64,000 nt of DNA. Origin: Rickettsiales bacterium (GTDB lineage: Bacteria > Pseudomonadota > Alphaproteobacteria > Rickettsiales > SXRF01). Shown piece by piece: positions 7,335-55,090 of this stretch. Made by a program: the position numbers and the translations under genes. The notes under the pieces were generated by a model that worked only from the letters and a program-made list of their open reading frames with translations, was not told the DNA's origin and searched no databases. Where the stretch lies: contig SXRF01000068.1 in NCBI GenBank assembly GCA_005792635.1, positions 180 to 64,179 on the forward strand. The letters are read 5' to 3'. Every line of letters starts with the position of its first letter. The stretch's first letter is position 1.

Positions 7335-7871
7335 ATGTCTCGTGTAGGTAAAAAGCCAGTTGCAATACCATCAGGCGTTACTGTTTCAGTAAAGTCCGGT
7401 GAAATTGCTGTAAAAGGTGGCAAGGGTGAGCTGAAGGCTAAACTAGCACCAGAAGTTACGGTTGCAGTTGAGGGTAGCAATGTTATTGTGCTTCCTATTA
7501 ACAAGGAAGATGCTCGCTCGCGTGCAATGTGGGGAACGACTCGCAACCAAGTGAACAATATGGTTGAAGGTGTGTCAAAGGGCTTTACTGTTCGTCTTGA
7601 AATTCAAGGCGTTGGTTTCCGTGCCGCTGCTGATAAGCAATATTTGACATTGGCTCTTGGGTTTAGCCATGAAATTAAATTTGCTATTCCAGAAGGAATC
7701 AGTATTGTCTGTGAAAAGCCAACCTCTGTTGCGATTTCTGGCTTTGATAAAAAATTGGTTGGTCAAGTTGCCGCTGAAATTCGCGGACTGCGTAAGCCTG
7801 AACCTTATAAAGGTAAGGGGGTTCGCTATGAAGGCGAATTTGTTCGCAAAAAAGAAGGGAAGAAAAAATAA
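7335..7871 (+). CDS. rplF: 50S ribosomal protein L6
   Basis: The canonical start MSRVGKKPV is the ATG at 7335, preceded by AAGGA. The ORF-track start at 7314 is an upstream extension. Confidence 0.95.
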   Translation: MSRVGKKPVAIPSGVTVSVKSGEIAVKGGKGELKAKLAPEVTVAVEGSNVIVLPINKEDARSRAMWGTTRNQVNNMVEGVSKGFTVRLEIQGVGFRAAADKQYLTLALGFSHEIKFAIPEGISIVCEKPTSVAISGFDKKLVGQVAAEIRGLRKPEPYKGKGVRYEGEFVRKKEGKKK

Positions 7872-7876
7872 GGGTA

Positions 7877-7935
7877 AATCTTAGCAGCTTTGCTGCTTAG
7901 ATTCCCCTTGTCCCGCACTTGTTGCGGGAACTGGA
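7877..7935 (+). repeat. Intergenic repeat, copy 1 (weak hairpin, then CCCGCA-loop-TGCGGG hairpin, then CTGG)
   Basis: TTAGCAGCTTTGCTGCTTAGATTCCCCTTGTCCCGCACTTGTTGCGGGAACTGG. By hand alignment it differs from the copy at 12356-12412 at roughly 7 positions. Confidence 0.85.
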
Positions 7936-11971: not shown

Positions 11972-12349
11972 GTGGCTCGTATTGCTGGTGTAAATATTCC
12001 TTCTGCTAAGCGTCTTGATATTTCGCTTACTTATATTCATGGTATTGGTCGCGTGAAGGCGACGGAAATCTGCGAAAAAGCAGGTTTGCCGCCTGAAAAG
12101 CGTGTTCATCAACTGGCGGAGTCGGAAGTGATTCGCGTTCGTGAGATTATTGACCGTGATTATACGGTGGAAGGTGATTTGCGCCGTGAAGTTTCCATGA
12201 ATATCAAGCGTTTGGTTGATTTGGGTTGCTATCGCGGTCTTCGTCATCGTAAGAAATTGCCTACTCGTGGGCAGCGTACGCATACCAATGCGCGTACTCG
12301 CAAGGGTAAGGCTAAGCCAATCGCTGGTAAGAAAATTGCAACTAAGTAA
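11972..12349 (+). CDS. rpsM: 30S ribosomal protein S13
   Basis: 125-aa ORF with a GTG start after AGGGG. Reads [10 protein letters not shown]...[24 protein letters not shown]. Confidence 0.96.
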
Positions 12350-12355
12350 GGGGAA

Positions 12356-12412
12356 AACTTGGCAGTTTTGCTGCTTGGATTCCCCTTATCCCGCATTTGA
12401 TGCGGGATCTGG
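12356..12412 (+). repeat. Intergenic repeat, copy 2 (same family as 7877-7935)
   Basis: TTGGCAGTTTTGCTGCTTGGATTCCCCTTATCCCGCATTTGATGCGGGATCTGG. It lies immediately downstream of the rpsM stop. Confidence 0.85.
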
Positions 12413-16032: not shown

Positions 16033-16659
16033 ATGACAAAACCAACTACAACACCTGCAAAAAATCCGTTTTCACTTCCTAATTCTGCTTTGGCGGCGGC
16101 GATTGAGCTTGAATGGCAATCGGGAAAAAAATATACGCCAACCAACATGCCGCTGACCGCGCTTGCTTATACCGCCATTGATAAAATTGCGCCCGCGAAG
16201 GAAAACATCATTGAGGTGTTGATGGTGTATGTGGATAGTGACACGCTGACTTACCGCGCCACGGGGTCGGAAAAGCTAGCAAAAGAGCAAGATGAAAAAT
16301 GGGGCGAGGTTTTGAAATGGGCTGGTGCGCGTTTTGACGCTTATTGGCAGGTAACTAGCGGCGTGATGCCTGTGGAGCAATCGCCAAATCTACACAAAGC
16401 TATTTCACGCTATTTGGCTTCGCTTGACGAATGGAAACTCTCGGCATTTTGTGTTTTGTCATCGCTGTTTTCATCGCTGGTGCTTGCCATTGCCGTGTGT
16501 GAGGAACATTTAAGCGCGATCGAAGCTTTCGCCCTCTCACGCCTCGAAGAAGAGCATCAGGCGGAACAATGGGGCAGGGACGAAGAGGCTGACAAACGCG
16601 CCGCCAATATGAAACAAGAAATTATTGATGCGGAGAAATTTTTGGAGCTGGTGAGGTGA
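16033..16659 (+). CDS. ATP12-family F1-ATPase assembly chaperone
   Basis: 208-aa ORF starting directly after the previous stop. LAAAIELEWQSG...MPLTALAYTAIDKI resembles the ATP12 family, and crcB-rlu-ATP12 synteny is common in alphaproteobacteria. Confidence 0.7.
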   Translation: MTKPTTTPAKNPFSLPNSALAAAIELEWQSGKKYTPTNMPLTALAYTAIDKIAPAKENIIEVLMVYVDSDTLTYRATGSEKLAKEQDEKWGEVLKWAGARFDAYWQVTSGVMPVEQSPNLHKAISRYLASLDEWKLSAFCVLSSLFSSLVLAIAVCEEHLSAIEAFALSRLEEEHQAEQWGRDEEADKRAANMKQEIIDAEKFLELVR

Positions 16660-16676
16660 GTTAATCAATTGAATTA

Positions 16677-16710
16677 CTTTGCCATACCGCCTTGCGGCGG
16701 TATGGCAAAG
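16677..16710. repeat. Perfect 15-bp-stem hairpin between convergent genes
   Basis: CTTTGCCATACCGCC TTGC GGCGGTATGGCAAAG. There is no flanking U-run. The stem core ATACCGCC/GGCGGTAT resembles the hairpins of the GTCAT...ATGAC elements. Confidence 0.8.
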
Positions 16711-16722
16711 TTAAGGCCGTGA

Positions 16723-17634
16723 CTAACGAGCAGCACCATTCGGTGCTTGCGCTTTTTCACCACTAATTGTCGGTGCTGGCTTATCGTGAGCATGTGATGC
16801 CGCAGTGCAATTATAATCCTTACCAGTACAACCAGCCGCTTCGGCTTCTTTCTGAGCTTTTTTCATTGCATCTTCGGCTCGTATCGCGCGTTCGCGTTCG
16901 TTCTCTTGCCTTGCTACTTCTTTATCAATTGCCTGATCTACTGCTTTGGGGTTATTCTCAAGTGTGTCTTTAGGTAATCTAATTACTGTACCCTTGTAAT
17001 CATCAGGCGGCAAAATTGTTGGTTGACCGTCAACTGCTTCAGGCAAAACCAACACGGGTGAATTAATAGTTACGCGATCCATTCGCGTTTCTACTACACG
17101 CCCATTTTCAATTTTTTGCGATTCCATATCGCCAAAGTCTTTAATTACCACTCCTTTTGGGGATTTTATAACTGTGTCGGTACTGAGGTATTTGTTAGTA
17201 TCAATACCCAAAGAATCAATTTTTACCACATCTCTGTCAGAGGCGATTTCTTTACCGCCAACACCATCCATTTCCACCGTACCAAGCTCTATAGCTCGAT
17301 TAGCTTGAATCTTAGGATTAGTAAGATGCGTGTGTTCAAGTTTGACATTTCCGTACGATCCTTGGGAATAAAATGTTACATCTTCATAGTTGCGCTGAAC
17401 ATTAGTTCTTTCATTCACTTTTGTGTCTGTTATACTACCTCCAATAATTGTTATATCTGATTTGTCTTCATCTCCACTAATAATGATACTGCGACCGTCT
17501 CCGTTTATAAGTTTGTTATCAGAAGTTTTATTATCAACAATAAGTGGCTGTTGAGCAGTCTCAAGCCGTTTATTTAAGTCATTTGCTTCTTCATCAGTCA
17601 AAAGCATTTCTCCGTCTTTATTCATATAAGGCAT
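16723..17634 (-). CDS. Hypothetical protein (acidic, no signal peptide, coiled-coil-like C-terminus)
   Basis: 303-aa ORF with no family recognised. It has an AT-rich upstream region containing a C9/G9 tract. Confidence 0.6.
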   Translation of the reverse strand: MPYMNKDGEMLLTDEEANDLNKRLETAQQPLIVDNKTSDNKLINGDGRSIIISGDEDKSDITIIGGSITDTKVNERTNVQRNYEDVTFYSQGSYGNVKLEHTHLTNPKIQANRAIELGTVEMDGVGGKEIASDRDVVKIDSLGIDTNKYLSTDTVIKSPKGVVIKDFGDMESQKIENGRVVETRMDRVTINSPVLVLPEAVDGQPTILPPDDYKGTVIRLPKDTLENNPKAVDQAIDKEVARQENERERAIRAEDAMKKAQKEAEAAGCTGKDYNCTAASHAHDKPAPTISGEKAQAPNGAAR

Positions 17635-22212: not shown

Positions 22213-22855
22213 TTGGCGTTATTTGAATAGGCATGATGGTCGGTTGTATGGCAACTGGCTCGGTTGGTTTGGTTTTTTCGGTAATCGCGCTCAAGCGTTG
22301 CAAATATCGCTCGGCAAGCTCAGCTGTACCGCGCTTCCTTGCGTCTTGCTCGGAAATATAGGTGGAAAAATATTGATTGCTCGGGTTGTTATAGCTGGTG
22401 ACGCTGCTGATTGCGCCGTTATCAATCAATTTTCCGTCGCTAATCCGCGTTAATTTATAGCCAGAATTTATGGTAAGGTTATAGCGCGATGCCGTTCCGT
22501 CCCGCGAAATGCCGATGCCTGTATTGGTTTGCGAGAGCGAAACTTCTAGGCGGTATAAAGGTGCAGTGGTTTTGGTGGAAGGAACGAGCAAATCCTCCAG
22601 ATTTTGTGAGAATTGGCGGGATATTCTATTTGCGGAATTATTGCTGGTGTCGGAACTGGAGGCAAGAACGCTGGTGGTTGAGCCACTGTCGCTTGCGACG
22701 ATGACTACCCCAGCCAGAACAGGAGAATTGGCAGGCAGCGCAGATTTTGTGCCATATACAGGCTGAAAGCCGCAGGAGGAAAAGCAGATTAGGAGTGTGG
22801 AGTATAGAGTGTAGAGTGTAAGAATCCTTATAGGAAAAAACGACTTTTTCCACAC
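22187..22855 (-). CDS. lptE: LPS-assembly lipoprotein LptE
   Basis: Located between leuS and holA. Lipobox ...LLICFSSC followed by GFQPVYG. The maximal ORF starts at the ATG at 22897 inside leuS. A GTG at 22855, with GGAG 6 nt upstream, gives a normal signal peptide (M)WKKSFFPIRILTLYTLYSTLLICFSSC. The start remains ambiguous. Confidence 0.75.
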   Translation of the reverse strand: MWKKSFFPIRILTLYTLYSTLLICFSSCGFQPVYGTKSALPANSPVLAGVVIVASDSGSTTSVLASSSDTSNNSANRISRQFSQNLEDLLVPSTKTTAPLYRLEVSLSQTNTGIGISRDGTASRYNLTINSGYKLTRISDGKLIDNGAISSVTSYNNPSNQYFSTYISEQDARKRGTAELAERYLQRLSAITEKTKPTEPVAIQPTIMPIQITPNENRPQIN

Positions 22856-22878
22856 TCCGCACTCCACACTCCACACTC
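22792..22878. repeat. Heptad-periodic inverted-repeat element spanning the lptE 5' end and the leuS 3' flank
   Basis: Left arm GGAGTGT GGAGTAT AGAGTGT AGAGTGT (22792-22819), an inner mini-hairpin GGAAAAA-ACGAC-TTTTTCC (22833-22851), and right arm CACACTC CGCACTC CACACTC CACACTC (22851-22878). Confidence 0.9.
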
Positions 22879-22880
22879 TT

Positions 22881-25445
22881 CTACGCAACCACGACATTCA
22901 CAATCCTATTCGCTACGACGATTATTTTTTTAATTTCTTTATCTTTTATAGACTCCGCAACATTCGGCAGGGCAAGGGCGGTTTTTTCCAAAATCGCTTT
23001 ATCTTCGTCTTTTTTTGCTTCAAACGCACCGCGCAATTTTCCATTTACTTGTACCGCGATATTCACCGAATCATCAATTAAAAACGCAGCATCGGCAATC
23101 GGAAACGGGCGGTTTGCCAGCTCGTCTTTATTACCCAGTTGCGCCCATAATTCTTCGGCGAGATGCGGCATAAACGGATTTATCAGATGAATTGCGGCAA
23201 TTATTGCCTCATTCCTTGCCGCTGAATTTTCCGCTGTAGGTTTGGTATCCTCAATTAGATTAGTCAGCTCACGAATTCGCGCAATGGCTTTGTTGAAATG
23301 GAATTTTTCCAGATCGTCAGTGACTGCGGCGATGGTTTTGTGGGTCTGGCGAATTAGGGCTTCGGGCTTTGGGCTTTGGGCTTCGGAAGAAATACTTGAA
23401 GCCTGAAGCCTAGAGCCTGAAGCCTCTTGAACTAACCGCCACAGCCGACCGATATACCGCCATGCACCTTCAATCCCTGCATCTGTCCATTCCAGATCGC
23501 GGTCGGGCGGGCTGTCGGAAAGCATGAACAACCGCGCCGCATCCACACCATAAGTCGCGATAATATGGCGCGGGTCAATGGTGTTTTTCTTGGACTTACT
23601 CATTTTCTCAATGCGCCCGACAGTAACAGGTTTGCCAGTTTTTATTTCTACAACCCCTAATCCAGAATTGCTAACCCCTATCTCATCAGGCGACAACCAT
23701 TTGCCTTCCGCGTTTTTATAGGTTTCGTGGGAAATCATCCCCTGCGTTTCAAGGCGTTTGAAGGGTTCTTGCAAATTCAGCAAGCCACATTTGGCGAGGG
23801 CGCGGGTGAAAAAGCGCGAATATAACAAATGCAAAACCGCGTGTTCAATGCCGCCGATATAGCAATCAACGCCGCCAGCCAGCCAATAGTTTAGCGCGGA
23901 TTTTTCCAGCGGGTCTGCGCTTGGCGTGGTTGCGTAACGCAAATAATACCATGACGACTCAAAAAATGTGTCAAATGTATCCGTTTCGCGGGTGGCTGGT
24001 TTTTCGCATTTCGGGCAGTTCACATGCTTCCATGTCGGATGATTGGCCAGCGGATTACCCGCTTTTTCAAAGCTCACATCTTTGGGTAACTCAACAGGAA
24101 GCTGCGCCTCTGGTACAGGCACTGCACCGCACGAAGCGCAATGGATAATCGGAATCGGGCAACCCCAGTAGCGTTGGCGCGAAATGCCCCAATCGCGCAG
24201 ACGATAATTGGTTTTGCCTGAGCCAATTCCGAGTTTTTCTAGCTCGGCGATGGCGCGTTTTTTTGCCTCGTCGACTGACAAGCCATTGAGAAAATCCGAG
24301 TTTATAAGTGCGTCATCATCGCCAACCACTTGCAAAATCGGCAGGTTATATTTAACTGCGAATTCGTGGTCGCGCTCGTCATGCGCTGGGCAACCAAAAA
24401 TCGCGCCAGTGCCATAATCCATCAACACGAAATTGGCGATATATAGTGGCACTTCGCGGTTTTCAAACGGATGTTTGATTTTTAATCCAGTATCAAACCC
24501 TTTTTTCTCGGCTTTTTCTATCGCTTCTTCGGATGTTCCAAGCTTATTACATTCAGCGATGAAAGCAGCGGCTTCTGGGTTATGTGCGGCTATATCTTTG
24601 GCAAGGGGATGACCAGTAGAAATCGCGCAGAAACTCATGCCGAAAAATGTATCAGGTCTTGTCGTATATATGTCTATGCTGCTCTCTATTACAGGCTTGT
24701 CAGGTTTGGCGCAAAGAACTTTGAGCGTGACAACAGCTCCCTGCGATTTTCCAATCCATTTTTCCTGCATTAGGCGGACTTTTTCTGGCCATTCTTTTAA
24801 GCCGTCTAGCCCTGCGAGTAAATCCTCGGCGAAATCAGAAATCCGCAAAAACCACTGCGATAATTTGCGGCGTTCCACCAGCGCACCGCTGCGCCAGCCG
24901 CGCCCGTCAATTACTTGCTCATTGGCAAGCACCGTGTTGTCCACAGGATCCCAGTTGACTTCCGCCTCTTTGCGATATGCTAAGCCATTTTCCAGAAATT
25001 TTAGGAAAAATTTTTGCTCGTGCTTGTAATAATCAGGAAGGCAAGTTGCCAGCTCACGCGACCAATCATAAGACAGTCCTATGAGTTTTAGTTGCTCGCG
25101 CATGGTTTCAATATTCGCCAGCGTCCATGTTTCTGGGTGCGAATTATTTTGAATCGCTGCGTTTTCCGCGGGCAAGCCGAACGCGTCCCAACCCATGGGG
25201 TGCAGGACATTAAACCCCTGCGCTCGCTTGCTTCGTGCCACTACATCGCCGAGCGTGTAATTTCGCACATGCCCCATGTGGATATTTCCAGACGGGTAGG
25301 GGAACATTTCCAGCACGAAGTATTTCGGCTTCTCGCTGTTAATGCTGGCGGCGAAGCTGTTGTTTTTTGCCCAGCGCTGTTGCCACTTGGCTTCAGTTTC
25401 GCGGAAGTTGTAGCGGGTGTTTTCTGTGGTTTTTGGTTCGGTCAT
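22881..25445 (-). CDS. leuS: Leucine--tRNA ligase
   Basis: 854-aa ORF with the HMGH motif (PYPSGNIHMGHVRNY), KMSKS and the CP1 editing domain. Confidence 0.97.
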   Translation of the reverse strand: MTEPKTTENTRYNFRETEAKWQQRWAKNNSFAASINSEKPKYFVLEMFPYPSGNIHMGHVRNYTLGDVVARSKRAQGFNVLHPMGWDAFGLPAENAAIQNNSHPETWTLANIETMREQLKLIGLSYDWSRELATCLPDYYKHEQKFFLKFLENGLAYRKEAEVNWDPVDNTVLANEQVIDGRGWRSGALVERRKLSQWFLRISDFAEDLLAGLDGLKEWPEKVRLMQEKWIGKSQGAVVTLKVLCAKPDKPVIESSIDIYTTRPDTFFGMSFCAISTGHPLAKDIAAHNPEAAAFIAECNKLGTSEEAIEKAEKKGFDTGLKIKHPFENREVPLYIANFVLMDYGTGAIFGCPAHDERDHEFAVKYNLPILQVVGDDDALINSDFLNGLSVDEAKKRAIAELEKLGIGSGKTNYRLRDWGISRQRYWGCPIPIIHCASCGAVPVPEAQLPVELPKDVSFEKAGNPLANHPTWKHVNCPKCEKPATRETDTFDTFFESSWYYLRYATTPSADPLEKSALNYWLAGGVDCYIGGIEHAVLHLLYSRFFTRALAKCGLLNLQEPFKRLETQGMISHETYKNAEGKWLSPDEIGVSNSGLGVVEIKTGKPVTVGRIEKMSKSKKNTIDPRHIIATYGVDAARLFMLSDSPPDRDLEWTDAGIEGAWRYIGRLWRLVQEASGSRLQASSISSEAQSPKPEALIRQTHKTIAAVTDDLEKFHFNKAIARIRELTNLIEDTKPTAENSAARNEAIIAAIHLINPFMPHLAEELWAQLGNKDELANRPFPIADAAFLIDDSVNIAVQVNGKLRGAFEAKKDEDKAILEKTALALPNVAESIKDKEIKKIIVVANRIVNVVVA
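23358..23425. repeat. Heptad-periodic inverted repeat inside the leuS coding sequence
   Basis: GGGCTTC GGGCTTT GGGCTTT GGGCTTC, loop, GAAGCCT GAAGCCT AGAGCCT GAAGCCT. On the minus strand it is translated as ...EASGSRLQASSISSEAQSPKPEA.... Confidence 0.9.
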
Positions 25446-26055: not shown

Positions 26056-26132
26056 CCCCGTTTTTATAACGGGGTCTGGGGCTGCAAGTGCTGACTATAC
26101 GCTTGTTTCCAGACCCCGCAACAAGTGCGGGG
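26056..26132. repeat. Pair of CCCCG hairpins with CTGG/CCAG tails in inverted orientation
   Basis: CCCCGTT-TTTAT-AACGGGG TCTGG ... CCAGA CCCCGCA-ACAAG-TGCGGGG. The second hairpin is the reverse complement of the 17-nt core CCCGCACTTGTTGCGGG at 7912-7928. Confidence 0.8.
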
Positions 26133-26170
26133 TGGGCAAACTTATAACATAAAAAAAACATGGTGCAAGC

Positions 26171-26265
26171 GTCATCAGTTATCCTGCGGCGGCGTAGCCG
26201 AGCGCAGGATCTTGGATAATTTGCACGAGATCCTGTGCAGTCGCTTTGCGACTCACAGGATGACG
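26171..26265. repeat. Multi-hairpin element closed by CGTCATC/GATGACG
   Basis: The outer 7-bp stem encloses ATCCTGCG...CGCAGGAT and ATCCTGTGCAGTCGC-TTT-GCGACTCACAGGAT. The architecture matches the elements at 28441-28533 and 54088-54183, but the sequence is different. Confidence 0.7.
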
Positions 26266-27738: not shown

Positions 27739-28416
27739 ATGTTGAATATAAAAGATAAATTGCAAAAAATTGCGGATGATATAGAAAAGGCGAGGGGGGC
27801 TTCGCCCATTGCTGCGCCAGCCGTTACTATACTTGCTGCCAGTAAATCGCAGTCCGCCCTATATATAGAAGAGGCGATTGCGGCGGGCATCACCGATTTT
27901 GGCGAAAACCGCGTGCAAGAAGCGGCGGAAAAGTGGGGGCAGGGCGGCTTGCGGGAAAAATATCCGCATATAAAACTACATCTAATAGGGGCATTGCAAA
28001 CTAATAAAGTGAAGCAGGCACTAGCACTTTTTGATGTTATTCAGAGTGTGGATAGCCCAAAGTTAGCAGAGGCTTTGAGTAAGCACTACACTTCACACTC
28101 CACACTCCGCACTCGTTCTTTCTATATCCAAATCAACACTGGCGAAGAGCCGCAGAAATCAGGGATTTTTCCCGCGCAGGCGGATGAATTCATAAAATAT
28201 TGTGTGGACGAGTTGCAATTGCCAGTTGTTGGGCTGATGTGTGTCCCGCCCGCTGATCAGCCGCCCGCGCCGCATTTTGCTTTGCTGCGTGAAATCGCCA
28301 AGCGGAATAATCTGCGCGAGCTTAGCATGGGCATGAGCGGCGATTACGAAGTGGCGGTGCGGATGGGCGCGAGCTGCGTTCGTGTTGGGACGGCGTTGTT
28401 TGGTGAGCGCGCATAG
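27739..28416 (+). CDS. yggS: PLP-homeostasis protein YggS (COG0325)
   Basis: MLNIKDKLQKIADDIEKA... LAASKSQS ... GENRVQE ... HLIGALQTNKVK ... ELSMGMSGDYEVAVRMGASCVRVGTALFG. The ORF-track start at 27640 is an upstream extension. Confidence 0.88.
   Translation: MLNIKDKLQKIADDIEKARGASPIAAPAVTILAASKSQSALYIEEAIAAGITDFGENRVQEAAEKWGQGGLREKYPHIKLHLIGALQTNKVKQALALFDVIQSVDSPKLAEALSKHYTSHSTLRTRSFYIQINTGEEPQKSGIFPAQADEFIKYCVDELQLPVVGLMCVPPADQPPAPHFALLREIAKRNNLRELSMGMSGDYEVAVRMGASCVRVGTALFGERA
28084..28114. repeat. CACACTC-type heptad array inside the yggS coding sequence
   Basis: ...CACACTC CACACTC CGCACTC, sharing the 14-nt string CACACTCCGCACTC with 22851-22864. It is translated as KHYTSHSTLRTR. Confidence 0.8.
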
Positions 28417-28440
28417 ATTTGTAAGCCACTGATTTTTCGT

Positions 28441-28533
28441 CTTGTCATACCGACGAAGGTCGGTATCCATGCCTATCGGCGTTTTATAAAGCAAGTGGCT
28501 TGGCATAGATTCCGCCCTGCGGCGGAATGACAG
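28441..28533 (-). repeat. GTCAT...ATGAC multi-hairpin element, copy 1 (reverse orientation relative to 54088-54183)
   Basis: CTTGTCAT ACCGAC-GAAG-GTCGGTAT CCATGCC ...variable... GGCATAG ATTCCGCC-CTGC-GGCGGAAT GACAG. Confidence 0.85.
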
Positions 28534-28635
28534 AATAAAGTTGCACAGTGCGTTATATAGTAATTGTTTATATAATTTTTCTTGCAATTAAAAATTGAGA
28601 AGAGCAGAATGATAATACAACTATAAGGTGGTATT

Positions 28636-47351: not shown

Positions 47352-49547
47352 TTACGCCATAAACTCTGGCAGCCAGCTTTCATTAGTAGCTTTTAGTTGT
47401 TCAACTGATATTTTGTCGTCGCCAATAGTCAGTTGACTGACTTGCGTTTTCCCGATTAGGTAGGCTGGCACATTTATCGCTTTTGCCGCCGCTAGAATAT
47501 CCGCGCTGTTTCTTGCAGTGATTATATAGCGAGCTTGATCTTCACCGAACCAGAACCCAGCATCACCAATCGCTGTAATATCCGCGCCAATCCCATTTCT
47601 ATAAGTCATTTCGGCGATGGCAACTAGCAGCCCACCGTCGGAAATATCATGACAAGCGGTGATTTTTCCGCCCTCAATCATTGAGCGCACAAAATCGCCA
47701 TTGGCTTTTTCCGCCTGCAAATCAACTGTTGGTGGTAAGCCTTCTTCGCGTCCCAAAATCTCGCGCAGATATAACGAAGCTCCCAGATGTTCTTTGGTTT
47801 CACCAATCAGGATAATATCCTCACCAGCCGCCAGAAAACTATTACCCACGCGCTTGTTCACATCGCGCAAAATGCCAACACCGCCGATGGCTGGGGTGGG
47901 TTGAATGGCTGTGCCGCTGGTTTCGTTATATAGCGACACATTGCCCGAAATAATCGGGTAATTGAGTGCGCGGCAAGCCTCGCCCATACCCTGCAATGCG
48001 CCAACGATTTGCCCCATTATTTCGGGTTTTTCTGGGTTGCCGAAATTCAGGCAGTTGGTGATGGCAAGCGGCGTTGCGCCCACGGCGGTTAAATTCCGCC
48101 AAGTTTCGGCAACTGCTTGCTTTCCGCCCTCCACAGGGTCGGCGTAGCAATAGCGCGGTGTGCAGTCGGTGGTTATTGCCAATGCCTTATTCGTGCCATG
48201 CACGCGCACCACCGCAGCATCCCCACCACTTCGTGCCACAGTGTCATTGCCAACTTGGCTGTCATATTGTTCGTATATCCAGCGTTTGGAGCTTAAATCT
48301 GGAGACTTGAGCAGAGTGTGGAGTGTAGAGTGTAGAGTGTGGTGAGCAGGTAATTCAACACTCGTAACGAAGCACTCTACACTCCTCTTAATTTCATACG
48401 GTCGGTCGTAAATCGGAGCATCCGTTGAAACTGGCGCGATTGGCATATCAGCGACTACTTCGCCGTGCATTTTCAGCACGATATGCCCAGTATCGGTGAT
48501 TTTACCGATGGTGGCGAATGACAACTCCCATTTCTCAAACACAGCGCGGGCGATATGTTCTTTTTCTGGCTTAATCACCATCAGCATGCGCTCCTGCGAT
48601 TCTGAAAGCATGATTTCGTAAGGTGTCATGCCCACTTCGCGCATCGGCACTTTGTCCAAATCCATCTCAATTCCCGTGCCGCCTTTACCCGCCATTTCAA
48701 GGGATGAGGAGGTTAAGCCCGCCGCGCCCATGTCCTGAATGGCAAGGATGGTGTCAGTTTGCATGAGTTCAAGGCAAGCTTCAATGAGTAATTTTTCCGT
48801 AAAAGGATCTCCAACCTGCACAGTCGGGCGTTTTTCTTCGGAGTTTTCGCCGAATTCCGCTGAAGCCATCGTCGCGCCGTGGATGCCGTCGCGCCCTGTT
48901 TTGCTGCCGACATACACCACGCTGTTGCCAACGCCCGCCGCCGCCGAATAGAAGATTTTGTCTTGGTCAGCGATGCCAACGGTCATAGCATTGACGAGGA
49001 TATTGCCGTTATATGACGAGTGAAAATTGCACTCGCCGCCAACAGTGGGAACACCAACGCAGTTGCCATAGCCGCCGATGCCCGCCACCACGCCAGAAAG
49101 CAAATGTTTGGTTTTGGGGTGCGAAGGGTCGCCAAAGCGCAGCGCGTTCATATTCGCAATCGGACGCGCGCCCATGGTGAACACATCGTGCAGAATTCCG
49201 CCAACACCTGTGGCAGCACCCTGATATGGCTCAATGTAAGATGGGTGGTTGTGCGATTCCATTTTGAAAATCGCCGCTTGCCCGTCGCCAATGTCTATCA
49301 CGCCCGCGTTTTCCCCCGGCCCGCAGATGACCCAAGGTGCGCTGGTTGGCAAGTCGCGTAAGTGTTTGCGCGTGGTTTTATAAGAGCAATGCTCGCTCCA
49401 CATAACCGAGAAAATCCCCAGCTCCACCATGTTCGGCTCACGCCCCATGATTTTCAGCACGCGGGCATATTCATCAGGCGATAAGCCATGTTCAGCCACG
49501 ATTTGCGGGGTTATTTTTGATTCTATTCTTTGTGCAGCTTGGTTCAT
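47352..49547 (-). CDS. purL: Phosphoribosylformylglycinamidine synthase subunit PurL
   Basis: [21 protein letters not shown] and DCLNFGNPE-like motifs. The ATG at 49547 ([22 protein letters not shown]) is preferred over the TTG at 49598 used by the ORF track. Confidence 0.95.
48314..48386. repeat. GAGTGT-type heptad inverted repeat inside the purL coding sequence
   Basis: GAGTGTG GAGTGTA GAGTGTA GAGTGTG (48314-48341), a loop, then CACTCTA CACTCCT (48373-48386). On the minus strand it is translated as ...[17 protein letters not shown].... Confidence 0.88.
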
Positions 49548-53063: not shown

Positions 53064-54071
53064 ATGCAAAATTTTGCAACGGATGTAGTGGTGATTGGGG
53101 CTGGGCCTGCTGGGTTGTTCTCGGTTTTTGAGCTGGGAATGCTTAAATTAAAAGCGCATGTGGTGGACGCTCTCGATGCGCTTGGCGGTCAGTGTAGTGC
53201 GCTGTATCCTGAAAAACCGATTTACGATATACCCGCGCATCCGAGCATCCTCGCGCAGGATTTGGTGGATAAACTTGCCGCGCAAGCTGCGCCATTTACG
53301 CCGACTTATCACCTTGGGCAGCGGGTAGAAAAGCTAGTAAAAACCGACTCTGGCTGGCAGGTTATTACCTCAAAAAATCTGCAAATAGCTTGCAAAGCCA
53401 TCATCATTGCCGCTGGTTGCGGTGCATTTGGGCCAAACCGCCCGCCGATGGAAAATCTGGAGCAGTTTGAAGGCAAAAGCGTGTTTTATTTCGTGAATAA
53501 ACGCGAGGATTTTCGTGGGAAAAAAGTAGTAATCGCTGGTGGTGGCGACTCGGCGGTGGACTGGGCTATTTCGCTTTCGGAACTTGCGGAAAAAATCTTC
53601 GTGGTGCATCGTCGTCCGAAATTCCGCTGCGCTCCTGAATCCGCCGCCAAGCTGCAAGAACTGGCGGATAGCGGCAAGATTGAGCTAGTGATACCATACC
53701 AGCTTGACGGTCTTGAAGGTGAAAATGGCTCACTGAAAAATGTGATTGTCAGTACTCTGGAGGGTGAAAAACGCGCTCTGCCTGCGGATGTTTTGCTGCC
53801 ATTTTTCGGGCTGTCTATGGAGCTGGGTGAAATCGCAAATTGGGGATTAAATCTGGAGAGCAACCATATAACTGTGAACCAAACCACGATGGCGACGAAT
53901 GTTGCGGGAATTTTTGCCATTGGCGACATTGCGACATACTCTGGCAAGTTGAAGCTCATCCTTTCTGGCTTTGCCGAAGCGGCGACCGCGGCGCACAGCG
54001 CACATAAAATCTGCCGACCTGATGAGGTGTTGCATTTTGAATATTCAACCACTAGCGGAGTGCCGAAGTGA
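53064..54071 (+). CDS. Ferredoxin--NADP(+) reductase, thioredoxin-reductase-like type
   Basis: VVVIGAGPAGL, GGQCSALYPEKPIYDIP and GGGDSAVDWA, with no CxxC redox pair. ATG at 53064 after AAGGA. Confidence 0.8.
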   Translation: MQNFATDVVVIGAGPAGLFSVFELGMLKLKAHVVDALDALGGQCSALYPEKPIYDIPAHPSILAQDLVDKLAAQAAPFTPTYHLGQRVEKLVKTDSGWQVITSKNLQIACKAIIIAAGCGAFGPNRPPMENLEQFEGKSVFYFVNKREDFRGKKVVIAGGGDSAVDWAISLSELAEKIFVVHRRPKFRCAPESAAKLQELADSGKIELVIPYQLDGLEGENGSLKNVIVSTLEGEKRALPADVLLPFFGLSMELGEIANWGLNLESNHITVNQTTMATNVAGIFAIGDIATYSGKLKLILSGFAEAATAAHSAHKICRPDEVLHFEYSTTSGVPK

Positions 54072-54087
54072 TGAGTGCAATTCGTTT

Positions 54088-54183
54088 CTGTCGTCATTCC
54101 GCCGAAGGGCGGAATCCATGCCTAACCGCAAGTGTATCGCTAGTTGTTTGGCATGGATACCAGCCTTCGCTGGTATGACAAGG
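54088..54183 (+). repeat. GTCAT...ATGAC multi-hairpin element, copy 2
   Basis: CTGTCGTCAT TCCGCC-GAAG-GGCGGAAT CCATGCC ...variable... GGCATGG ATACCAGC-CTTC-GCTGGTAT GACAAG. It matches the reverse complement of 28441-28533, with compensatory stem changes. Confidence 0.85.
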
Positions 54184-54226
54184 CGAGAGGTTGATGGAAA
54201 ACACATTTGTATATTATGGAGAAGTG

Positions 54227-55090
54227 ATGATCAAAACAAAAATAATTGATGGCAAGAAATTTGCGGAGAATTTGCGGGCGGATATTGCGCTGCGTGTGGC
54301 GAAATTAAAGGCTGAAAAAGGCATAACCGCTGGGTTGGCGGTGGTGCTGGTGGGCAGTGACCCCGCCAGCGAGGTTTATGTCCGCAATAAAGGCAAGCAA
54401 ACCCGCGAGGCGGGCATGGAATCTTTTGAATTCCATTTCCCAGAAACCACCAGCGAAGCCGCGCTACTCGCCAAAATTAATGAGCTTAATAATGACACCT
54501 GCGTTCACGGCATTTTGGTGCAGCTACCACTGCCCAAACATATTAATGAAGAGGCGGTTATCAACGCCATTTCACCAGAAAAGGATGTGGATGGTTTTCA
54601 TGTCATCAATGCGGGCAAGCTGGCAACGGGTCAGCCAAGCTTTGTTCCCTGCACACCGCTTGGTTGCTTGATGTTGCTGCGCGACGCGGTTGGCGATTTG
54701 TCTGGTAAAAACGCGGTGGTTATTGGTCGTTCCAATATTGTGGGTAAGCCGATGGCGGCGTTGTTGCTTGGCGAAAGCTGCACGGTTACCATCGCCCATT
54801 CGCGCACAAAGGATTTGCCAGCATTGCTTAAAACCGCGGATATTGTGGTTGCCGCCGTTGGTCGCCCGAATATGGTGAAGGGCGAGTGGCTAAAGCAAGG
54901 CGCGGTGGTGATTGATGTTGGCATCAACCGCATTGACGACGCGGAAGCTGGAAAAACCAAGCTGGTTGGCGATGTAGATTTTGCGAGCTGTGATGGCATC
55001 GCCGCCGCCATCACTCCCGTCCCAGGTGGCGTTGGGCCAATGACCATAGCCTGCTTGTTGGAAAACACCATCCGCGCGGCTTCTGCTTAG
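54227..55090 (+). CDS. folD: Bifunctional methylenetetrahydrofolate dehydrogenase/cyclohydrolase FolD
   Basis: [13 protein letters not shown]..., [33 protein letters not shown] and [14 protein letters not shown] at 54227. Confidence 0.95.

Follow-up and report, generated by a model that had tools for sequence, protein, structure and literature searches.

The dRS3 repeats and NIMEs of Neisseria carry hairpins of the form ATTCCC-N8-GGGAAT, which flank RS units; dRS3 also serves as a site of phage integration. The same kind of hairpin has been described more broadly as the CGTC-1 family of REPs, or repetitive extragenic palindromes (Di Nocera, De Gregorio, Rocco 2013, BMC Genomics 14:522; PMC3733652). 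Its units have the tag CGTC, often TGTC (CCTC is also allowed), followed by an 8-bp stem in which the first and second positions are almost always complementary A-T and T-A pairs, a 4-nt loop, the second half of the stem, and the tail CCA. Most are arranged as head-to-head (HH) dimers, meaning that the tags are outside, with the partners 20-100 bp apart and heterodimers included. A genome can have from tens up to thousands of units; CGTC-1 is commonest in alphaproteobacteria and is equivalent to dRS3 of Neisseria and RPE-6 of Rickettsia. No dedicated transposase is known for CGTC REPs, and no RAYT or other IS200-type gene was found flanked by CGTC units; many REPs were argued to be transcribed and possibly to act as RNA hairpins (PMC3733652).

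In 2025 these hairpins were redefined as a class of NTS and Ssn-related motifs (SRMs), together with the nuclease SsnA (Chenal et al. 2025, Nat Commun 16:2388; PMC11893778). SsnA is a 94-amino acid single-domain GIY-YIG protein (cd10448) that binds and cuts the hairpin as single-stranded DNA (ssDNA) only, has no action on duplex DNA, and shows no interaction with RNA. The cut falls a few bases upstream of the motif. Binding depends critically on the C right after the palindrome, and cleavage on the three bases ahead of it; ssn genes are typically flanked by SRMs. With the Neisseria enzyme, cutting is abolished by a change of stem sequence despite kept pairing. This study is the only biochemistry on the repeat family (PMC11893778).

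The present analysis concerns two elements of about 90 nt, copy A and copy B, in a 64-kb window (the whole 64,000-nt stretch of DNA analysed, from an uncultured alphaproteobacterium). Both are very probably HH heterodimers of CGTC-1 REPs, equivalent to the SRM class, and their hairpins would most likely be recognised as ssDNA by an Ssn-type nuclease. They belong to an already known kind and are a rediscovery, neither a new RNA nor a new transposon. The novelty implied by a first-pass annotation of this DNA therefore falls away, as the elements fit the published CGTC-1 and SRM definitions of a class described in 2013 and tied to a nuclease in 2025. For this window the result carries little weight, the elements being ordinary instances of that class. 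The wider class is of more general interest for its mode of multiplication, for its link to Ssn ssDNA nucleases, established only in 2025, and for its role outside Neisseria.

Sequence and layout of the two copies

Copy A and copy B have two arms of about 31 nt in common, seen when 28443-28532 is compared with the reverse complement of 54092-54180. The arms are 86-89% identical, and a repeat search pairs them as inverted repeats at 86% and 89% (I1/I2). Alignment of 28431-28545 on the forward strand with 54078-54195 on the reverse strand gives near-identical ends and a middle that cannot be aligned; the sequences agree with the earlier description. A further repeat (D13, 84%) is direct and is formed by the left arms of copies A and B, which means that each element is one unit used twice, inverted. 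The five-part layout reported previously is present, but it is made up of a single unit of about 31 nt, repeated in inverse orientation, plus a spacer; the "terminal" and "central" stems of that description arise because two copies of one unit face each other, inverted.

The unit shared by both copies consists of a (C/T)GTC tag, an 8-bp stem starting AT, a 4-nt loop, the second stem half, and the tail C(C/T)ATGCC. Copy A has its left unit at 28443-28473 on the forward strand (TGTC-ATACCGAC-GAAG-GTCGGTAT-CCATGCC), a core or spacer of 28 nt at 28474-28501 (TATCGGCGTTTTATAAAGCAAGTGGCTT), and its right unit, inverted, at 28502-28532 on the reverse strand (TGTC-ATTCCGCC-GCAG-GGCGGAAT-CTATGCC). Copy B has a unit at 54092-54122 on the forward strand (CGTC-ATTCCGCC-GAAG-GGCGGAAT-CCATGCC), a core of 27 nt at 54123-54149, and an inverted unit at 54150-54180 on the reverse strand (TGTC-ATACCAGC-GAAG-GCTGGTAT-CCATGCC). 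The hairpins of each copy are separated by 41-42 nt, and the tags are outside in both.

In each of the four stems (ATACCGAC, ATTCCGCC twice, and ATACCAGC) all eight pairs are Watson-Crick, and the three sequences are minor variants of the commonest stem, ATTCCCGC. The half-site pattern GTCATWCCNNCNNNNGNNGGWATC matches the four arms perfectly and no other place in the window; allowing three mismatches raises the number of matches to nine, while 0.72 are expected and nine were reached in none of 100 shuffles. The compensatory change noted earlier in the last hairpin is real: two adjacent pairs differ together, ACCGAC/GTCGGT in one stem and ACCAGC/GCTGGT in the other (GA/TC to AG/CT). Folding of both strands of A and B as ssDNA gave z values of -4.5 to -6.4, with either a three-way junction (the "cloverleaf") or one long hairpin predicted.

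The window has a GC content of about 45%. Copy A lies in a series of genes for LeuRS, a DUF3576 protein, a Porin_4 porin, and YggS, followed by tRNA-Thr and then a chemotaxis cluster; 26 nt separate its start from the stop codon of yggS, and 103 nt its end from the next ORF. Copy B lies between an ORF resembling ferredoxin-NADP reductase (named by eye from its translation) and an ORF labelled folD in the first-pass annotation; it starts 20 nt past the stop codon of the former and ends 10-46 nt ahead of the latter. Both copies are thus intergenic between co-directional genes, and they are opposite to each other in orientation relative to transcription. The closest YggS homologues come from MAGs labelled Alphaproteobacteria or Rickettsiales, with an identity of no more than 70%. 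Searches for intrinsic terminators and promoters linked to A or B gave weak consensus matches only, with no T-run after the hairpins. At gathering score, tRNA-Thr was the sole Rfam match in the whole window, and at E<=10 nothing relevant was found around copy A. Small ORFs over the elements (with translations such as ...IPAKAGIHA... and ...DSALRRNDD...) are spurious and due to the REP repeats. Copy A is also found, identical, in the MAG GCA_005779685.1 and in a Logan contig, which were located via the CheY and YggS proteins and carry no independent information.

Comparison with CGTC-1 REPs, SRMs, and dRS3

Apart from one tail, the four arms have all the features that define a CGTC-1 unit. The tags are TGTC, TGTC, CGTC, and TGTC; the stems start with AT and have 8 bp; the loops are GAAG, GCAG, GAAG, and GAAG; and three of the tails read CCA, the other CTA. 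Both A and B are HH dimers with different stems in their two arms and, like CGTC-1 elements, are intergenic, close to the 3' end of the upstream ORF, and alphaproteobacterial. Nothing essential sets them apart; the differences are the CTA tail of one arm and stems that are minor variants.

The published SRM regular expression, HGTCWYN(0-2)YYVSBRHN(0-5)WNVSBRGN(0-2)RNCYNB (PMC11893778), matches three of the four arms exactly and nothing else in the window, with 0.11 matches expected per shuffled window. The remaining arm (28443-28473, ATACCGAC) falls outside the expression by one compensated A-T stem pair. The GTC before the palindrome and the C right after it are kept in all four arms, and both are absent from another palindrome of the window, at 16677-16710. 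The stricter NTS motif, CGTCATTCCCGCGMAVGCGGGAATCYRG, with at most one mismatch allowed, does not match: the best arm, 54092-54119, has five mismatches when counted by eye. The elements are therefore SRMs and not Neisseria NTS proper. They differ from the published cases also in their host, which is an uncultured alphaproteobacterium and not Neisseria, and in that there is no ssn gene in the window; the layout around a single-domain GIY-YIG gene on a related contig, L159 (see below), is like that of NTS-ssnA-NTS.

The dRS3/NIME hairpins of Neisseria are of the same class, and there too inverted hairpins bracket short variable segments; however, the window elements do not have the consensus ATTCCC...GGGAAT (they have ATTCCG or ATACC), and the window lacks large mosaic arrays.

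Occurrence in other genomes and covariation of the stems

Genomes, one per species, were scanned with the half-site pattern GTCATWCCNNCNNNNGNNGGWATCYATGCC, which left three stem pairs free. It occurs at at least 119 genome loci in alpha-, beta-, and gamma-proteobacteria and in many other phyla. Among the matches listed, the recurring layout is a tagged hairpin, a variable spacer, and an inverted tagged hairpin: 71 of the 127 units listed have a head-to-head partner, at a spacer of 5-188 nt (median 39), and in most of these pairs the stems differ between the two arms. Single units and tandem arrays also occur, an example of the latter being locus L025. Second arms, which the pattern did not constrain, have, among the matches listed, the tags CGTC (20) or TGTC (14) and mostly CCA tails.

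The clean test of covariation is given by the three stem pairs that the scan pattern left free. These are Watson-Crick in 126, 122, and 123 of the 127 units among the matches listed, which include at least 11 different fully complementary stem variants. In an alignment of 55 distinct units, partly biased in that second arms were picked for at least seven of eight pairs, 99.1% of cells are paired, compared with 84.7% in shuffles; double changes occur at five of the eight pairs; and the covariation score is 0.384, compared with 0.098 when shuffled, a signal that collapses when partner columns are slid. A covariance model built solely from units of other genomes (R1) finds exactly the four arms in the window, at 43.6-47.7 bits and E values of about 1e-10 to 1e-11: 28443-28473 at 46.0 bits (E 2.8e-11), 28502-28532 at 43.6 bits (E 1.5e-10), 54092-54122 at 47.5 bits (E 9.5e-12), and 54150-54180 at 47.7 bits (E 8.5e-12). 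Covariation in further copies had been proposed as a check of the fold; across the 127 units listed, which come from many phyla, it is near-perfect in the stems.

The arm hairpins are clearly under selection for pairing. There is no comparable evidence for a multi-helix fold, as both the length and the sequence of the spacer are free. The earlier claim that the fold is selected accordingly holds for the arm hairpins, by covariation across genomes, but not for the cloverleaf as an RNA fold, given a spacer of 5-188 nt among the matches listed and no Rfam match.

Besides the four canonical units, the window has two units of a sister family. These form a second head-to-head dimer at 26170-26265, between the genes for the DUF3576 protein and the porin, with CGTC tags, the stems ATCCTGCG and ATCCTGTG, and long loops containing hairpins of their own; the fold has a z of about -6, and a pattern search gave two matches where 0.00 are expected. 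The related fold that had been seen at 26171-26265 is therefore a second CGTC-tagged dimer with different stems. The hairpin at 16677-16710 is a perfect palindrome (TTTGCCATACCGCC-TTGC-GGCGGTATGGCAAA) and lies between convergent ORFs, but its relation to the arms is restricted to the stem, as it has the tag GCC instead of GTC and a G, not a C, after the stem. It is the next match of model R1 below the four arms, with 18.3 bits for the stem at 16684-16703, covering model stem positions 5-24 only. This palindrome is probably either a degenerate REP unit or an unrelated hairpin.

Association with GIY-YIG genes

The 64-kb window itself has no GIY-YIG or Ssn gene detectable by motif scan or by tblastn (E>8). 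In the genome sample a GIY-YIG ORF (Pfam PF01541, 3e-17) adjoins a unit at two loci among the matches listed, and in a metagenome scan with the stem types of this lineage a GIY-YIG gene is present at 12 of 120 loci. Across both samples GIY-YIG ORFs abut SRMs at 14 loci, and in eight of the 14 the ORF is bracketed on both sides with the tags outward. The clearest case for comparison with the window is contig L159 (GC 0.44), in which TGTCATACCGCCGCAGGGCGGTATCCATGCC arms are found on both sides of a 97-amino acid GIY-YIG gene (Pfam 8e-14). The stem of these arms is the same as in dimers of Alphaproteobacteria bacterium UBA6149 and in the window palindrome at 16677-16710. The L159 protein has a weak NCBIfam match to group I intron endonucleases, and a PDB sequence search returned UPF0213 (1zg2) only. 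In L159 the published SRM-ssn-SRM layout recurs with arms that hardly differ from those of the window.

For the window, we infer the nuclease link by analogy and through these related contigs. As the Neisseria enzyme depends on stem sequence, the window stems would need a cognate enzyme of their own. The object under selection is the unit of about 28-31 nt, with its (C/T)GTC tag, 8-bp hairpin, 4-nt loop, and C straight after the stem. The published work and the related contigs suggest that the hairpin may act as ssDNA, exposed in replication, transformation, or repair, and that a small single-domain GIY-YIG nuclease, a member of the Ssn family, would recognise the stem together with the 3' C and make a nick a few bases 5' of the tag. 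Spread of the repeats may take place together with SRM-ssn-SRM units, or in the form of gene-less miniatures of them, and any effects on flanking mRNAs, as hairpins at 3' ends, would be secondary.

Alternative explanations

The position of the elements invites an explanation at the level of RNA, in which the whole element of about 90 nt would be a structured RNA, either a small RNA or a cis-acting 3'-UTR stabiliser or terminator of the upstream mRNA, with the fold selected as RNA. A and B are 20-26 nt past stop codons with co-directional genes on either side, the predicted folds are strong, and Di Nocera et al. hold that many REPs are transcribed and may be RNA hairpins (PMC3733652). However, the two copies face opposite ways with respect to transcription, Rfam gives no match, around copy A not even at E<=10, and the hairpins have neither a T-run after them nor a convincing intrinsic terminator. 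Across the family the spacer is 5-188 nt long among the matches listed and variable in sequence, so that the arm hairpins alone, and no multi-helix fold, are conserved. The asymmetric flanks, GTC before the stem and C after it, are moreover the determinants of an ssDNA nuclease without RNA interaction (PMC11893778). A structured RNA is thus unlikely; RNA-level side effects of the elements are possible, because A and B lie between co-directional genes.

Two further explanations treat the elements as DNA. The architecture is that of a REPIN or BIME of Pseudomonas or E. coli, in which a pair of classical REPs is moved in trans by a RAYT (REP-associated tyrosine transposase, IS200/IS605-like): two REPs inverted to each other across a short spacer, the potential to fold as one long hairpin, and possibly copying as a unit, in a class of repeats known to form such dimers. 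RAYT-linked REPs have the tag GTAG, though, where these arms have (C/T)GTC, Di Nocera et al. saw no RAYT or other IS200-type gene flanked by CGTC units (PMC3733652), and in the sampled loci the gene between such arms is apparently GIY-YIG and not a Y1 transposase; a RAYT-driven origin is very improbable. In a classical MITE, an internally deleted IS would be moved by a DDE transposase and leave target-site duplications. The terminal inverted repeats of about 31 nt, the variable core, and copies at unrelated loci have this appearance, and the layout for which the elements had been called MITE-like is real; it mirrors the SRM-GIY-YIG gene-SRM units. No direct repeats flank A (TCGTCT...GAATAA) or B (TCGCCT...GACAGA), so the proposed check for target-site duplications was negative for both copies, and in two relatives (L016 and L167) the flanking repeats are inverted, not direct. 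Single units and tandem arrays exist as well, and each "TIR" is itself a conserved covarying hairpin, for which a DDE transposase has no need. A classical MITE is scarcely credible here. The evidence weighed together favors dimers of CGTC-1 REPs, probably recognised by an Ssn-type nuclease.

Dimers as units and their mobility

The cores of A and B had been taken as unrelated. They are mutually dissimilar (p~0.12), yet each resembles cores in other genomes. The closest relatives among the matches listed are in UBA6149 (L007, L008, L014, and L016), which has several dimers on separate contigs and whose DNA shares about 70-72% identity with coding parts of the window. The core of copy A matches that of L007 at 16 of 28 positions (permutation p~0.002), and the core of copy B resembles those of L014 (p<0.0005) and L016 (p~0.0065). 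A dimer on metagenome contig L167 is 89% identical to copy B over 90 nt, with unrelated flanking genes. Core length is 27-28 nt in all dimers of this lineage, and relatives of the whole dimer with equal core length (L007, L014, and L016 of UBA6149 and metagenome contigs L164 and L167) are at non-orthologous loci. It would appear from this that dimers are inherited or spread whole, in the manner of REPINs.

The dimers could conceivably be gene-less miniatures of SRM-ssn-SRM units, copied whole and moved in trans by a small GIY-YIG nuclease of the Ssn type that works on hairpins in single-stranded form. The constant core length, the core similarity at non-orthologous loci, and the eight of 14 GIY-YIG genes that are bracketed fit such an origin; comparison of the dimer cores with the inner ends of the L159 unit by eye gave no clear relation. 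The alternatives are other modes of spread, gene conversion, and simple vertical decay of the repeats. To our knowledge, the way in which CGTC REPs multiply has never been demonstrated, nor has a GIY-YIG enzyme been demonstrated as the driver of a REP/MITE-like mobile system. If the dimers are indeed miniatures moved in trans, a GIY-YIG enzyme would drive just such a system. A lineage with a few clean, uniform 90-nt dimers, together with a related contig on which similar arms flank a GIY-YIG gene, offers a tidy test case for the movement of these units.

The site of copy A was also compared with relatives. A search for an empty site via YggS homologues, the closest about 70% identical, gave no exact insertion boundary. 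In a syntenic relative (L124/L125) the gap downstream of yggS has different CGTC REPs, with the stem ATCCTGCG of the family found at 26170-26265 in the window, and in another (L128) the gap is without CGTC REPs. From the contents of the gap in L124 and L128, turnover at the site downstream of yggS is evident.

Related units in the window and in metagenome contigs

Besides copies A and B, the two head-to-head heterodimers of CGTC-1 REP units, the window contains a second type of CGTC-tagged head-to-head dimer at 26170-26265. Its stems, ATCCTGCG and ATCCTGTG, differ from those of copies A and B, and its long loops contain small hairpins of their own. This stem type is also found directly after yggS in a syntenic relative (L124/L125). 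A dimer that resembles copy B lies in metagenome contig SXGU01146576.1 (L167, 3098-3185), with 89% identity over 90 nt, core included; the neighbouring genes on both sides are unrelated, and the sequences directly flanking the dimer form an inverted repeat (GACTTTTTCTC ... GCACAAAAAGTC).

Metagenome contig SXGT01288840.1 (L159), which has a GC content of 0.44, similar to that of the window, carries an SRM-gene-SRM unit at 413-789: a 97-aa single-domain GIY-YIG ORF lies between two identical arms, TGTCATACCGCCGCAGGGCGGTATCCATGCC, with their tags facing outward. Across the genome and metagenome samples, 8 of 14 GIY-YIG loci are bracketed by tags-outward arms. The stem of the L159 arms recurs as the inner stem of a perfect palindrome in the window (16677-16710; TTTGCCATACCGCC-TTGC-GGCGGTATGGCAAA; 14-bp stem), which is enclosed by convergent ORFs at 16033-16659 (+) and 16723-17634 (-). 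The palindrome has GCC in the tag position and G after the stem; it could be a unit that has decayed, or else a bidirectional hairpin.

Arrays and taxonomic spread

The family also forms tandem arrays, since complete dimers are arranged head-to-tail in at least three copies, with a period of 76 nt, at a contig end in Limnohabitans parvus (NZ_NESN01000009.1, 11-192; L025). Among the matches listed, MAGs whose labels name Nanoarchaeota, Candidatus Harrisonbacteria, Dehalococcoidia, and Zixiibacteriota, among others, carry the same 30-nt half-site (for example L005, L052, L022, and L042), which may reflect either horizontal spread or binning contamination.

Spurious reading frames and other repeats

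Long spurious ORFs run across the elements at 53971-54249 (+), 54045-54206 (-), and 28159-28587 (-). They encode peptides such as FRRRAESMP, IPAKAGIHA, and DSALRRNDD, which are typical translations of the CGTC-type REP repeat class; such read-through ORFs could be mis-annotated as hypothetical proteins.

A 69-nt two-hairpin repeat, with copies 86% identical, is located at 7866-7934 and 12344-12412, both in intergenic gaps within the ribosomal-protein gene cluster. The second of the two hairpins, CCCGCA-N5-TGCGGG, has one further copy at 26115-26131, which makes three matches in the window versus 0.02 expected. The repeat appears to represent a further family of small palindromic repeats. Runs of CACACTC/CGCACTC-like heptamers are present at 22793-22882, 28086-28114, and 48310-48342. 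One run falls within the yggS reading frame, and an inverted pair lies just past the stop codon of LeuRS.
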